From IMG/VR virus record IMGVR_UViG_3300045988_142422: 64,000 bases of DNA, one strand, 5' to 3'. Positions within the stretch are counted from its first letter, which is position 1. The number at the start of each line of letters is the position of its first letter. Shown in pieces: positions 1 to 64,000 of this stretch. The DNA comes from a virus (Duplodnaviria > Heunggongvirae > Uroviricota > Caudoviricetes). The position numbers were made by a program, and so were the translations under genes. The notes beneath the pieces are model-generated. The model worked only from the letters and a program-made list of their open reading frames with translations. It ran no database searches and was not told the origin of the DNA.

Positions 1-123
1 CAATTTTACGCGTTGTTTCATCGATAAACTCGACTGAGCGCCCAGCGTAACCAGCGATCCCAGCGATGCGATTAACAAAATATTCATTGCGCACGTTAAC
101 GCCAGCGATAAGAACAAACATGA
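1..123 (-). CDS. Hypothetical protein, N-terminal part only (gene runs off the window start)
   Basis: Minus-strand ATG at 121-123 reads MFVLIAGVNVRNEYF... and stays open to position 1; a GGAG lies just upstream. Truncated, so absent from the ORF track. Confidence 0.3.
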
Positions 124-168
124 TAAAGCTCCTTTAAAGCGCCCATAGTGGGCGCTTGATTCCATTAA

Positions 169-819
169 TTACGCTTTGAAAGCATCAGCTAAATAATTGT
201 AGAAATCATTTTTAATGAAGCGATATTGCTGAGTACCAGCTTTCGCGCTCCCAGCTCCTTTGACTTTTTCAACAAGTCCAAGACGTTCGCAAAGATTGAT
301 CAACTGGTTGGCTTGAGTATAGCCAGCGTCCAATTTAATTTCACACGCTTTTTTAGCTTCATTCATTAAATCGAAAACAGCGCCATTAGTGAACGTGTCG
401 ATCTCGTCGTTAATCATATCGATTAAAGCGAATACACGAGATCCAGACATATCAGCGATGGAATAAACGCATTTACCAGATTTAATTGATTTAACCAGAT
501 AAACAAGTTTTTCCAGAGAATAACTATTAGTCATTGCATCACGGAAAAATACTTCTGGCGCTTGTTTGCTTGCTTTAATCGCATAGTAGAAAACAGAGCA
601 TAATTTTTCGTCTTCTACTGCGTTTACGACGTTGTTGATGAAGTAAGCAAGTTTAGTGGTCGCAGCTTGCATATTTGCTTTGTCTGCTTTAGTGTGCGTA
701 CCATTTTTATAATGTTCGTTATATGTTTGAGTTGCCAGATCTGCTTTTTCGCGCAGTTCATCGGATACAATGGAAGCAGCTTCAATGATGGATTTTTTAG
801 AAATGATAATGTTAGCCAT
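169..819 (-). CDS. Hypothetical protein (216 aa)
   Basis: Long ORF with ATG start and an AT-rich promoter-like region upstream (820-1050). No motif I can assign. Confidence 0.5.
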   Translation of the reverse strand: MANIIISKKSIIEAASIVSDELREKADLATQTYNEHYKNGTHTKADKANMQAATTKLAYFINNVVNAVEDEKLCSVFYYAIKASKQAPEVFFRDAMTNSYSLEKLVYLVKSIKSGKCVYSIADMSGSRVFALIDMINDEIDTFTNGAVFDLMNEAKKACEIKLDAGYTQANQLINLCERLGLVEKVKGAGSAKAGTQQYRFIKNDFYNYLADAFKA

Positions 820-1067
820 GATAATTTTTCCTTATGTAAATTTAAAATTTATTGTCGTTAGCGTCTTCGCTTTCGACGAGTTCAATTATCGATATGCGAA
901 AAAAGATTGCAAGTGTTTTTTTTAAATTTTTTGCAGGGATGAAAGTCCTAGAAATAAAAGCGAGATCGTCGAAGGTGTTCCCTAAATAAATAATTGATTG
1001 CGGCTTTAGACCTTATATATATTTAGGTTATTTGATTTGTAGATATAAAGAAGTGATGTGAAAAATA

Positions 1068-1091
1068 ATAACCGGACTTAGCCGGTTATTA
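1068..1091 (-). terminator. Hairpin downstream of the 1103-1411 gene, putative intrinsic terminator
   Basis: Inverted repeat AATAACCGGAC / GCCGGTTATT; the minus-strand reading has a T-run after the stem. Confidence 0.4.
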
Positions 1092-1102
1092 ACCTTATAG
1101 AT

Positions 1103-1411
1103 TTATTGAACAGACTCTACAGCCTTACGATTGGTGTCAAATAGCGCATCAACGAACTGTGCCGATGACTCGCTAGATTCGCAATCCAACATTGCCCGTT
1201 CTTCATTTGCCACTTTCTTACACAGTTCCACATTCTCACCTATCGCTTTTCCTGCTTTTACGGCTGCCGAAAATTGATACATGCAAACTGATACATTCTG
1301 AGACGTTGAGCACACGTCATTCATCAGCGACTGAATGACAGGCTTATAGTCCATTGCATTTGCCGCAACTGAGCAAAGTAAAAATAATGGTGGTAACAAT
1401 ATCGATTTCAT
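1103..1411 (-). CDS. Small secreted or periplasmic protein with N-terminal signal peptide (102 aa)
   Basis: N-terminus MKSILLPPLFLLCSVAANA is a hydrophobic signal with an AXA-type cleavage site; several Cys in the mature part. Confidence 0.55.
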   Translation of the reverse strand: MKSILLPPLFLLCSVAANAMDYKPVIQSLMNDVCSTSQNVSVCMYQFSAAVKAGKAIGENVELCKKVANEERAMLDCESSESSAQFVDALFDTNRKAVESVQ

Positions 1412-1414
1412 AAC

Positions 1415-61527: not shown

Positions 61528-61644
61528 TTTTTGATAGATAATAAGTAAGTACTGATCTATCATTTAACAGCTCGAAAGAGCCACGAATGAACGAAAGCCC
61601 AACGCGCATAGCGCCATCGGCCAAATCACAACAAGGAGAAACAC

Positions 61645-62673
61645 ATGTCTAAGACATTACTTGATTTGCTTAACAAAACTCGTGAAGACATTGCCGCCAA
61701 ACGTGGCAACAACGTTGATCTGACTCGCTTAAAAGACGGCGTCAACTATATCCGCATCTTCCCGAATAAAGACGACCCAAACGGTAAGTTCTTCCAGACT
61801 TTCGGTATGCACTACGTTAAGTATCAGAACGAGGAAGGTAAAGAAGCAACCAACGCTTATATTTGTGAGCAACATACTCACGGTCGCGCTTGTCAGCTAT
61901 GCGAAATGGTTATGGAAGGTCGCGCTCGTCACAAGGGTAACAAAGCAATGGAAGAACGCATCGGTCAAATGCGTGCCACTCCTCGCTACCTGGTCAACGG
62001 CATTCTTTCTGCTCGTGAGGATTTCGCAGATGCTGAGAAATGCCAGTTAATCGAGCTGCCGTCTACTGTATTCGATGATATCTGCAAAGCAATCACCGAA
62101 GACATCGCTGATGATATCGGCAATCCACTGAGCAAAGAGGAAGGCTACGCATTCCTGATTAAACGTACTGGCTCTGGTCGCGATACCAAATATGACGTCT
62201 CGCCTAAGCGTAAAGTCTACAAAGGCGATATCGAAGATAAATTCTGGAACACCCAGCATGATCTGATCGCATACGCAAATCAGGCTGATGAAACTCGTCT
62301 TCTGTCGACAGTTCGCACTATGGGTCGTCTGATTGGCATCGCTGCACCAACTGCCGCAGCATCTGCACCAGCAATTTCCTCAACCGCGAAAACATCGGCT
62401 GCGGCACTACCTGGATTTGGCTCTGTCACTGGTCATACGGAGGGTGCGACTGCTGTAGCAACCGCTCACACCCCAGCTTCTGAACCAACCAGTCTGGTTG
62501 ATGAAGAAATCCTCCGTGCCGTTGAAACTGAATTTAAACCAGAAGCAAGTTCCGCTGCCGTTGCCGTATCAGTCAAAGAGTCTGAAGCAGTCGCAGCGAC
62601 ATCTGTAGCAGCCGCATCTGCGACGGAAGATGAAGGTCTGGATGACCTACTGAGAGAGCTGGACTCTCTGTAA
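61645..62673 (+). CDS. Single-stranded DNA-binding protein (T4 gp32-like, putative)
   Basis: CEQHTHGRACQLC zinc-binding-like motif plus an acidic C-terminal tail (EDEGLDDLLRELDSL). Confidence 0.55.
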   Translation: MSKTLLDLLNKTREDIAAKRGNNVDLTRLKDGVNYIRIFPNKDDPNGKFFQTFGMHYVKYQNEEGKEATNAYICEQHTHGRACQLCEMVMEGRARHKGNKAMEERIGQMRATPRYLVNGILSAREDFADAEKCQLIELPSTVFDDICKAITEDIADDIGNPLSKEEGYAFLIKRTGSGRDTKYDVSPKRKVYKGDIEDKFWNTQHDLIAYANQADETRLLSTVRTMGRLIGIAAPTAAASAPAISSTAKTSAAALPGFGSVTGHTEGATAVATAHTPASEPTSLVDEEILRAVETEFKPEASSAAVAVSVKESEAVAATSVAAASATEDEGLDDLLRELDSL

Positions 62674-62733
62674 TCCCATTACGTGACCAGTAAGGCGTCT
62701 ACGGACGCCTTACTTTTTGGAAGGAATGTACCG

Positions 62734-63678
62734 GTGAATTATCTCTTCGTAGATGGCAATAGCCTGGGTTATTACCACCAACAATCTGACAAATTGCACA
62801 ACGGCGAAATGGAAGTACAGGCTGCTTTCGGCTTTGTTAAGAACGTCCGTCGTTATGCCTCCATCCTCCATGCCCGACCTATGATTCTTTGGGATGGATT
62901 TAGTGACAAGCGTCGCGACTTTTACCCGGACTACAAAGCAAATCGCGACGACGATCCTGATATGAAAAAGATGAAGGAAGGCTTTGCTATCCAGAAGCCA
63001 TACATCCTCAAAATGATGACCGCGCTTGGAGTTACCCAACTCATTGCAAAAGATGCAGAAGCGGATGATCTGGCCGGGCTGCTGGTATCCCGCATGGCAC
63101 CGCAGCCAACCGTTGAACACATCTATCTGTTAACAGGCGATAGCGACTGGCTTCAGTTAGTTCGTGAAAACGTAAGCTGGGTAAGCCTGCGTGAAGACGC
63201 CAAAAACAAGCAGGTTAATTTTGAGCAATTTGCGGAGCTGACAGGATTCGCCACGCCTCGCGCATTTTTGGAAGCAAAAGCATTACAAGGCGATAACTCG
63301 GACAACATTAGCGGTGTTGGTGGCATTGGTGCTGGCGGTGCGAAAGAGCTGCTGCATGAATGGGGAAGTGTCGCAACGATGGTACGCGGCATCAACGACG
63401 GCTCAATCGTGGTTAATAAAGGGCGTCATAAGACCGCCTTCAACAAACTAGCGAAGAATGCCTTCAACGAGAAAACAGGCTGTCGAATGCTCGAAGCGTT
63501 CAAGAGAAACATCACGCTAATGAACCTGATTGAGACGAAGTTTCCGCCTACCGAAATCGAAACAATCAAAGGCAATCGTGACGTGAAAGCATTCGAGCAA
63601 CTGTGCTACGAGCTGAATTTCCGTTCGTTCCTTGAAGACCTTGAAGTGTTTGTTCTTCCATTCGAAAGGTATTGCTAA
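62734..63678 (+). CDS. 5'-3' exonuclease / flap endonuclease (RNase H-like)
   Basis: LFVDGNSLGYY and LTGDSDWLQL motifs of the FEN/T4 RNase H family; GGAAGGA before GTG 62734. Track lists 62683. Confidence 0.7.
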   Translation: MNYLFVDGNSLGYYHQQSDKLHNGEMEVQAAFGFVKNVRRYASILHARPMILWDGFSDKRRDFYPDYKANRDDDPDMKKMKEGFAIQKPYILKMMTALGVTQLIAKDAEADDLAGLLVSRMAPQPTVEHIYLLTGDSDWLQLVRENVSWVSLREDAKNKQVNFEQFAELTGFATPRAFLEAKALQGDNSDNISGVGGIGAGGAKELLHEWGSVATMVRGINDGSIVVNKGRHKTAFNKLAKNAFNEKTGCRMLEAFKRNITLMNLIETKFPPTEIETIKGNRDVKAFEQLCYELNFRSFLEDLEVFVLPFERYC

Positions 63679-63944
63679 TGCTTAAATCGATTATCAATGG
63701 CGCTACAACCACCCCTGCCCAACTGGCAAAAGAGATTGTCTTTTATCACGGTGAGTACGCTGTCATCGCACTGCCGTCAATTCTAGGCGCTGCCGGAATG
63801 AAAGCGACAGATCGCGAGTTTGGATTAGTCAGCGAGCAGGTCGTAAAAATCCTCGCTCGTGTATCCAGACTCCTTAACCACGATGCGATTGTATTCGATG
63901 AATCCGCCGCTTTAAAACGAATCAACGAAACAAAAGGAGCCTGA
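63672..63944 (+). CDS. Hypothetical protein (90 aa)
   Basis: ORF overlapping the exonuclease stop. Confidence 0.4.
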   Translation: MLMLKSIINGATTTPAQLAKEIVFYHGEYAVIALPSILGAAGMKATDREFGLVSEQVVKILARVSRLLNHDAIVFDESAALKRINETKGA

Positions 63945-63946
63945 TC

Positions 63947-64000
63947 ATGGCAAAAGGAAAATCCGCACTGGCACTTGCTCTGAAAAAGAAAATCGGTAGC
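63947..64000 (+). CDS. Hypothetical protein, 5' end only (runs off the window)
   Basis: AAAAGGAG RBS then ATG 63947 (MAKGKSALALALKKKIGS...). Confidence 0.3.
   Translation, partial: MAKGKSALALALKKKIGS

Follow-up and report, generated by a model that had tools for sequence, protein, structure and literature searches.

The window, a stretch of 64,000 nucleotides from the IMG/VR virus record IMGVR_UViG_3300045988_142422, is almost certainly an internal piece, approximately 59%, of a temperate siphovirus phage-plasmid of about 108 kb that belongs to the SSU5 supergroup and is of the Escherichia coli pLF82/Cyrano, pECOH89 and pSLy3-like type. The element is already known and is ordinary, as the SSU5 / pLF82-"Cyrano" / pECOH89 type has been described before. 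The SSU5 supergroup (SSU5 / pHCM2 / pSLy3 / pKpn / pMT1) is a textbook group of phage-plasmids (PMC7969092) that is reported to be exclusively extrachromosomal (PMC7969092, PMC9600943). A first-pass annotation, made from the sequence of the window alone, had read it as a phage-plasmid rather than an integrating prophage, and that reading is supported by near-identical circular plasmids, by the location of relatives in complete genomes and by the literature on the phage Cyrano.

Relatives of the window and their location

By megablast, Escherichia phage CMS-2020a (107.6 kb, circular) covers 100% of positions 1-25000 of the window at 98.6% identity, phage Cyrano is 99.0% identical across 7594-25000, and Salmonella phage SSU5 covers 70% of 1-25000 at 81% nucleotide identity. 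Klebsiella pKpn-type phages match at 79%. PhiR41_1 is another relative deposited as a phage beside Cyrano/pLF82 and CMS-2020a, and these relatives are collinear with the window and 95-99% identical to it. Positions 39001-64000 match E. coli plasmids of approximately 108-112 kb at about 98% identity over 95-96% of the interval; 1,474 plasmid records match here, and 1,410 of them are typed as non-mobilizable. Positions 20001-45000 are covered to at least 80% in 112 complete E. coli genomes, and the best records are all replicons of 95-120 kb. At 95-99% identity, the nearest relatives are IncFIB-typed circular plasmids of 95-120 kb that are non-mobilizable; these elements have also been deposited as phages.

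In the alignment with NZ_CP061531, a circular, IncFIB-typed plasmid of 108,197 bp, 61,706 of the 64,000 window bases are collinear, in reverse orientation, at 94-99% identity. Window position 1 corresponds to position 70,499 of the plasmid and window position 64000 to position 5,305, so that both ends of the window fall inside plasmid backbone. The comparison to known phage-plasmids that the first-pass annotation had proposed as a check is in its favor, the window being collinear with both NZ_CP061531 and Cyrano. It had also remarked that the window holds no host flanks or duplicated attachment sites. No host DNA and no attL or attR flanks are seen in the window, but because the window is internal, with neither end of the element in view, their absence is uninformative and carries no weight.

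The location of relatives in complete genomes is more telling. The genes for a CobT-like protein, an AAA ATPase and DnaE (52006-59144) form a block specific to the element. Of 5,426 complete E. coli genomes, 245 contain it; the 263 places where it occurs all lie on plasmid records, and none lies on a chromosome. A conventional chromosomal prophage, inserted by way of its tyrosine integrase and represented by a window that stops short of attL and attR, is very improbable for this DNA. It is true that the ends of the element are not in the window and that its recombinase is of the phage-integrase family, the nearest relatives outside phage-plasmids being Gifsy-1-type integrases. These points are outweighed by the wholly plasmid location of the 263 places and of the full-length matches (all on plasmid records of 95-120 kb), by ParA, a toxin-antitoxin pair and, in relatives, RepA, and by a candidate core site that is a symmetric palindrome occurring once per element, with no duplicated copy flanking the element in relatives. 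For SSU5-like elements as a family, chromosomal integration is effectively excluded.

Cyrano is the plasmid pLF82 of E. coli LF82 (OV696614; PMC9928086). It has been found at approximately 5.5 copies per cell, is induced 39-fold by ciprofloxacin and yields siphovirus virions visible by electron microscopy (PMC9928086). Its gene order is that of the window: tail, lysis, KacT/antitoxin, ParA, DnaB, primase, ligase, transfer RNAs (tRNAs), glutaredoxin (grx), integrase (int), repressor, CobT, AAA, DnaE and single-stranded DNA-binding protein (SSB). The two differ in the tail fibre region, which diverges; in the cargo between the tRNA cluster and the palindromic site described below, where Cyrano has CYRAN_41 and CYRAN_43 and the window has an orphan open reading frame (ORF) of 302 amino acids (aa); and downstream of the ParA partner gene, where Cyrano has an extra ORF, CYRAN_30, and the window has a lipoprotein gene on the opposite strand.

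The plasmids pECOH89 (NC_023916 / HG530657), NZ_MH257954 and NZ_CP061531 are phage-like E. coli plasmids of approximately 108-112 kb in the pSLy3-like group. In pECOH89 and NZ_MH257954 the variable spot at 48250-49830 is 99.2-99.6% identical to that of the window (99.2% in pECOH89), and relatedness to pECOH89, together with the E. coli host, suggests that the subgroup is pSLy3-like. pECOH89, of 111,741 bp and described in 2014, carries an ISEcp1-blaCTX-M-15 cassette (PMC3999498) that the window lacks. In NZ_CP061531, ISKox3 separates the palindromic site from int and there is a metG/apbC insert; the window has neither. The virion, lysis, ParA and replication genes of SSU5 (JQ965645 / NC_018843) are collinear with those of the window at 69-86% nucleotide identity; the supergroup gene repertoire is recognizable as blocks in this range over the 35-64 kb part of the window. 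The integrase locus is also common to the window and a Yersinia pestis contig of approximately 108 kb.

Virion and lysis modules

Phage-plasmids are recognized by a full set of phage functions together with plasmid functions, namely partition and a replication initiator, and by an extrachromosomal state in the lysogen (PMC7969092). In the window, packaging, head, tail and lysis functions are all present in full-length ORFs with PHROGs matches, in agreement with the complete virion and lysis modules claimed by the first-pass annotation, and plasmid partition is represented by ParA at 37977-38645. In the virion module (7727-35334), the TerS-like, TerL, portal, scaffold, major head, decoration and tail genes match PHROGs families with E-values from 1e-54 to 0.

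The integrity of these genes bears on whether the element might be a defective or domesticated phage-like plasmid, with the same backbone and maintained as a plasmid but producing no infectious virions. Mitomycin C treatment yielded no packaged DNA from at least one E. coli element of the SSU5/pSLy3-like kind (PMC9600943), work on a Klebsiella SSU5-like plasmid has dealt with it as a plasmid and not as a phage (PMC8969562), and defects could lie in the approximately 41% of the element that the window does not cover. The structural, lysis and replication ORFs of the window are nevertheless full length, with lengths equal to those in Cyrano, NZ_CP061531 and SSU5; no insertion sequence (IS) interrupts the window, although several relatives have such insertions; and close relatives make virions or were isolated as phages. 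We regard a defective plasmid as unlikely, and a functional temperate phage-plasmid is the reading followed here.

The virion and lysis genes are all on the plus strand. Packaging and head genes encode a TerS-like DNA-binding protein (7727-8359), TerL (8359-9615), the portal (9642-11216), the scaffold (11238-12125), the major head protein (12151-13026) and an Ig-like decoration protein (13100-14020), all matched in PHROGs. They are followed by connector genes (14065-16605) collinear with annotated genes of NZ_CP061531 and Cyrano, by an Ig-domain protein at the position of the major tail protein (16644-17426; best match phrog_1280, 'Ig domain containing protein', with weaker matches to major-tail families) and by a chaperone gene (17482-17799) that is likewise collinear with genes of NZ_CP061531 and Cyrano. 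For this packaging, head and proximal tail block (7727-17799) the PHROGs E-values are 1e-54 to 1e-162. The remainder of the tail module encodes a tape measure of 1530 aa (18136-22728), tail tip proteins M/L/K/I (22771-25258; L, K and I are annotated in relatives of 98% identity), J (25270-30003), a long tail fibre of 1462 aa (30097-34485) and a gp38-like adhesin (34495-35334). The matches in this tail module are to phrog_1292, phrog_31 and phrog_2589, with E=0, and to phrog_2056 (1.7e-92).

In-frame tandem repeats are present on the plus strand in two receptor-binding proteins, one of 99 nt in the C-terminal region of J (28768-28985) and one of 120 nt in the tail fibre (32212-32489), and a scan of the window for tandem repeats found them only inside these two genes. 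A stretch of the fibre gene, 33185-33684, is among the few regions that the window does not have in common with NZ_CP061531.

Directly 3' of the tail module, the lysis cassette (35397-36827) consists of a holin candidate of 111 aa with a C-terminal transmembrane segment (35397-35732), an endolysin (35719-36438; phrog_873, 1.7e-87), the i-spanin Rz (36440-36691; phrog_1026, 7e-25) and the o-spanin Rz1 (36612-36827; phrog_1275, 1.3e-24), which overlaps Rz and has the lipobox ISGC. Holin, endolysin, Rz and Rz1 are annotated likewise in Cyrano and SSU5.

Partition, addiction and plasmid initiation

A small Walker-type ParA is encoded at 37977-38645 (plus strand) and matches phrog_164 (4e-51), the Pfam families MipZ, CbiA and ParA, and NCBIfam ParA_partition (1.9e-33, below the cut-off of that model); the ParA partition system named in the first-pass annotation is therefore confirmed at the family level. 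The gene that begins at the last base of parA (38645-39004, plus strand; phrog_5111) encodes a partner of 119 aa with a weak match to aCcr1, a ribbon-helix-helix (RHH) family (2.3e-4). This partner is probably a centromere-binding protein and may be of the RHH type. A single-sequence AlphaFold model (AF2) has low confidence (pLDDT 64), with a disordered N-terminus and three helices, and is too weak for a fold search. The protein has the look of a small, helical, possibly RHH DNA-binding protein; its public label in Cyrano, 'RelE/ParE toxin', has no profile support.

The first-pass annotation had proposed addiction-type toxin-antitoxin pairs in the plural, and one of them stands. On the minus strand, a GNAT acetyltransferase toxin of the TacT/KacT type (36860-37381; GNAT families, 5e-8) lies 7 bp from a DUF1778/TacA antitoxin (37389-37697, start probably at 37658; PF08681, 8.6e-26), which is the arrangement of a type II TacA/TacT pair. 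A pair of this type is expressed in the Cyrano lysogen (PMC9928086). The second candidate consists of two minus-strand ORFs that the Cyrano annotation labels HicB (59993-60592; phrog_2620, 'excisionase and transcriptional regulator') and HicA (60617-60841; no profile match). Searches of 59993-60841 for signatures of HicA (dsRBD-like) and HicB gave no Pfam or NCBIfam match at E<=0.01 and no meaningful match in the Protein Data Bank (PDB), and we do not count it as a toxin-antitoxin pair.

The plasmid initiator RepA has no match within the window (tblastn, E<=10). In collinear relatives repA is located approximately 4.2 kb past window position 64000, which places the initiator outside the window and does not make it absent from the element. 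Of the large autonomous replisome with a DnaE-type polymerase described by the first-pass annotation, DnaB, primase, ligase, DnaE, SSB and exonuclease are present; RepA, the determinant of autonomous replication proper, is beyond the right end.

A lysogeny module missing from SSU5

Over the region that runs from the lysis genes through the exonuclease, the window and SSU5 are collinear except for four stretches. SSU5 lacks 36820-37869 (TacAT), 38998-39919 (the lipoprotein gene), 59155-60163 (a cspA gene and its thermoregulator leader) and 47855-51907, which comprises two tRNAs (Thr and Ser), the cargo spot, glutaredoxin, a palindromic site, a tyrosine recombinase and a divergent helix-turn-helix (HTH) regulator. 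In the SSU5 record, where positions 42600-42663 stand in the place of window 47855-51907, tRNA-Asn is followed almost directly by the cobT-like gene. The absence of this stretch from SSU5 identifies the lysogeny module of the window at 47.9-51.9 kb. SSU5 has been described as virulent (PMC5427195), and its lack of the int-repressor block and of TacAT fits that description. The lack of these genes is offered as an explanation of why the type phage is virulent and its E. coli relatives are plasmid prophages.

The same comparison bears on whether the window could come from a strictly virulent SSU5-like phage, sequenced from particles and having no lysogenic or plasmid state. Apart from the description of SSU5 itself as virulent (PMC5427195), several near-identical records have been filed as phages. 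The window, however, has the int-repressor module and TacAT that SSU5 lacks, and also ParA, and hundreds of isolates harbor its closest relatives as resident plasmids, so that a virulent origin has very little to recommend it over a temperate phage-plasmid.

Within the module, the HTH transcriptional regulator (51057-51443, minus strand; HTH_19, 7.8e-4, below the cut-off of that model; phrog_8, 1.3e-11) is the candidate prophage repressor. An inverted-repeat search found candidate operators, GGTAAG..CTTACC palindromes, at 51475-51666. The counterpart in Cyrano, CYRAN_45, is annotated as a 'putative repressor' and is expressed in lysogens (PMC9928086). The tRNA cluster, Asn(GTT), Thr(TGT) and Ser(TGA), lies at 47779-48242 on the plus strand (ARAGORN; Rfam tRNA).

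A tyrosine recombinase and an adjacent 13-7-13 site

The recombinase of the module is a protein of 367 aa in the phage-integrase family (49959-51062, plus strand; PF00589, 2.9e-10; phrog_1, 4.8e-47). A weaker match to the integrase central domain, Phage_int_M (PF22022, 1e-4), is under the model cut-off, and an integrase domain is matched in NCBIfam. Candidate motifs for the catalytic Arg/His/Tyr residues were read by eye only. The nearest relatives outside phage-plasmids are prophage integrases of the Gifsy-1 type at 25-34% identity, and a PDB sequence search gave no match at E<=1.

Approximately 130 bp upstream of its start codon is a lox-like core site, AATGATTCCATAC-CTACTAT-GTATGGAATCATT (49828-49860), with perfect 13-bp inverted arms and an asymmetric 7-bp spacer. 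This is the architecture of a core site of the Cre/loxP type (inverted arms of about 13 bp around an asymmetric spacer of 6-8 bp). It occurs once in the window, and none of 100 shuffled sequences has one. Cre itself was not a detectable relative of the recombinase in the PDB sequence search or the nearest-relative search. The lox-like site with a tyrosine recombinase reported by the first-pass annotation therefore holds as to the palindrome and the recombinase; the recombinase belongs to the phage-integrase clade and is not Cre-like.

Among 70 IMG/VR loci picked by integrase similarity alone, 68 have the exact arms 127-131 bp 5' of the integrase start codon. One exception has a truncated gene, and the other, with an integrase that is 56% identical, has TTGATTCCATAC-TTATATA-GTATGGAATCAA, a symmetric change in both arms. 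The arms are invariant in elements of E. coli, Klebsiella, Kluyvera, Buttiauxella and Yersinia pestis, with integrases 82-86% identical, and an integrase search of a contig collection with one genome per species gave only 5 loci. The spacer is variable (CTACTAT, CTATTAA, TTGGTAG and rarer forms) and is also found as the exact reverse complement (ATAGTAG, TTAATAG) between the same flanks, which indicates that it flips in place. Homology between elements ends exactly at the distal arm: in 93 loci the int-side flank falls into 2 clusters and the other flank into 19 unrelated clusters.

P1 is the archetypal phage-plasmid with Cre/loxP, ParAB and Phd/Doc. The lifestyle plan that can be read from the genes of the window is that of P1: a plasmid prophage with a partition ATPase and an addiction module, plus a tyrosine recombinase whose site has 13-bp inverted repeats around an asymmetric spacer. 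It differs in that P1 is a myovirus, with structural genes unrelated to the siphovirus set of the window; the ParA of P1 is of the large type Ia, whereas that of the window is small; and the loxP spacer is 8 bp rather than 7 bp. P1 is not known to have a DnaE-based replisome.

Three single-arm copies of the motif are also present. An exact arm match, ATGATTCCATACATCTCAT, lies at 46561-46579 on the plus strand and a second at 47573-47591 on the same strand; the third is on the minus strand inside dnaE (55872-55890, arm at 55879), where it codes for ..MRCMESL.. and forms a perfect 19-nt inverted repeat of the 46561 copy. The arm of 12-15 nt, ATGATTCCATAC(ATC), thus recurs in three single copies, as exact 12- to 14-mers, where chance would give about 0.3 even if mismatches are tolerated; the shared form is ATGATTCCATACATC[T/A]CAT. 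The full site and all three single-arm copies are identical in Cyrano. Copies on the plus strand are found in all lineages, at distances of 1.8-7.3 kb leftward of the full site; the dnaE copy is approximately 6 kb to its right, and all copies point toward it. Among 34 loci of 74-99% identity the 13-mer in dnaE never changes, although the codons just upstream vary freely. A stop codon often comes directly after the plus-strand copies, and these therefore do not mark the start of a conserved ORF. SSU5, which has no int, keeps the single-arm copies, that in dnaE included, and this weakens a reading of them purely as accessory sites for Int.

Several other accounts of the motif were considered. 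That the neighboring HTH repressor uses the palindrome as its operator is judged less likely, as the repressor control region has different palindromes (GGTAAG..CTTACC). A shufflon-like switch that flips the DNA between the two oppositely oriented 19-nt copies at 46561 and 55890 was rejected because the orientation is the same in 34 of 34 loci, and an origin of the single-arm copies from attL and attR was rejected because the spacers are inverted and not direct repeats. A promoter scan around the motif copies found fewer sigma-70-like sites than in shuffled sequences and no association, and Rfam, at gathering and E-value thresholds, found only the tRNAs and the cspA leader and no known small RNA (sRNA) at the motif.

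From these sequence comparisons, the integrase-family recombinase and the invariant 13-7-13 palindrome may, we suggest tentatively and with more doubt than confidence, form an undescribed Cre/lox-like system of SSU5-supergroup phage-plasmids. Such a system would resolve multimers, and by recombining co-resident elements it would generate the mosaic boundary, where at least 19 unrelated cargo segments meet one conserved int side; the single-arm copies could be secondary (Rci/sfx-like) sites, operators of a P1-C1-like regulator that has asymmetric sites, or RNA pairing elements. At its simplest, we infer a resolution system that would work like Cre/lox and also serve as the crossover point for exchange of modules between co-resident elements. 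Indirect signs of recombination at the site are the linkage with the recombinase in 68 of 70 loci, the symmetric arm change beside the 56%-identical recombinase and the sharp break in homology at the arm. Phage-plasmids are said to 'typically lack integrases' (PMC12977533). No description of this recombinase and site was found in the literature searched, and a search for the motif sequence returned only irrelevant primer matches. What may be new is the observation of a palindrome, linked to a recombinase, that stays the same from genus to genus and coincides with a sharp mosaic boundary, with conserved single-arm copies on its flanks.

Replication, accessory and cargo genes

The first replication block (40084-46189, plus strand) begins with a gene for a protein of 249 aa and continues with a DnaB-like helicase (40877-42217; PF03796, 4e-13), a primase (42365-43477; DNAG_N, 1.3e-5, just under the model cut-off), two further proteins and an ATP-dependent DNA ligase (44867-46189; PF01068, 5.8e-13); the gene calls agree with the annotations of relatives. 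To the right of the lysogeny module, also on the plus strand, are genes for a CobT-like vWA protein (52006-54114; PF11775, 5.7e-83), a MoxR-type AAA_5 ATPase (54210-55445; PF07728, 2e-15) and a DnaE-type polymerase III alpha subunit (55626-59144) with four Pfam domains (PF07733, PF17657, PF14579 and PF02811). The CobT-like protein, which has an acidic, low-complexity linker, and the MoxR-type ATPase form a pair (52006-55445) just 5' of dnaE that is kept throughout SSU5-like elements. In NZ_CP184119 and NZ_CP080257 dnaE is split by an HNH endonuclease gene, which suggests a homing element; in the window dnaE is uninterrupted. A last plus-strand block, 61096-63678, encodes a UvsY-like mediator (61096-61527), a gp32-like SSB (61645-62673; PF08804, 1.7e-66) and a 5'-3' exonuclease (62683-63678; PF02739, PF01367); a weak match in this block is to phrog_231.

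At the left end of the window is a leftward accessory block (169-4275, minus strand) with ORFs at 169-819, 1103-1411 and 1944-2408. It includes a FljA-like flagellin repressor of 200 aa (1415-2017; Pfam PF03614, Flag1_repress, 2.5e-84; phrog_1444), apparently a moron by which host flagellin might be silenced in the lysogen, together with a DEAD/ResIII helicase (2716-4275; ResIII, DEAD and Helicase_C domains; PADLOC PbeA-like, 5e-23). Divergent from the helicase gene is an operon (4340-7255, plus strand) for two ParB_N-domain proteins and two ABC-type ATPase-like proteins (PF02195, 3e-13 and 1.5e-8; PF00005, 5.8e-13; phrog_886, 1e-164). This operon lies directly upstream of the terminase genes, is kept in SSU5-like elements and has matching annotation in NZ_CP061531; that it serves as the partition system is unlikely.

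The variable cargo spot (48421-49748) holds the 302-aa orphan ORF (48421-49329, minus strand; phrog_35492) and a glutaredoxin gene (49503-49748, plus strand; PF00462). The orphan ORF lies in an island of 37% GC, is identical in pECOH89 and gives way to other cargo in Cyrano and NZ_CP061531. Pfam, NCBIfam and PADLOC searches gave no match for it, and it may be a defence or moron gene. The cspA-type cold-shock gene (59423-59841, minus strand; PF00313, 4e-33) has a complete cspA thermoregulator leader (Rfam RF01766, 185.7 bits) and is host-like cargo that SSU5 does not have.

Discussion

On the reading preferred here, the lysogen would carry the element as a low-copy circular plasmid. An IncFIB-type RepA, encoded just outside the window, would start its replication, the small ParA locus would partition it, the TacA/TacT pair would penalize its loss, and the HTH repressor beside the recombinase gene would silence the lytic genes. 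The most likely role of the tyrosine recombinase is the resolution of plasmid or concatemer multimers at the adjacent 13-7-13 site, as by Cre/lox in P1, and not chromosomal integration. DNA damage would lead to lytic growth, for which the element would use its own DnaB, primase, DnaE, SSB, ligase and exonuclease; TerS/TerL would package the DNA into a capsid with a long non-contractile tail, and the holin, endolysin and spanins would lyse the host.

Several points weigh against this account. Because RepA and both ends of the element fall outside the window, it is from relatives that this copy is taken to be extrachromosomal. Only short, chance-level repeats were found in a search for centromere or iteron repeats around parA, and the ParA partner (38645-39004) is an uncharacterized protein. 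Some SSU5-like elements are not inducible, as in E. coli 166F4 (PMC9600943). Occasional integration is formally conceivable, the recombinase being integrase-like, and rare chromosomal regions that resemble phage-plasmids have been reported (PMC12977533).

The gain in classification is small, since SSU5-like phage-plasmids have been catalogued in hundreds and GenBank already lists near-identical copies, some as plasmids and some as phages. What is useful in practice is correct annotation: the element should be filed as a phage-plasmid, and the labels 'cryptic plasmid' and integrated prophage should both be avoided. SSU5-like elements spread blaCTX-M-15 and dfrA genes by infection. If the recombinase and the palindrome do work as a resolution or exchange system, they would explain the swapping of cargo at one hotspot of these elements and would constitute a compact new site-specific recombination pair, a result of modest importance.

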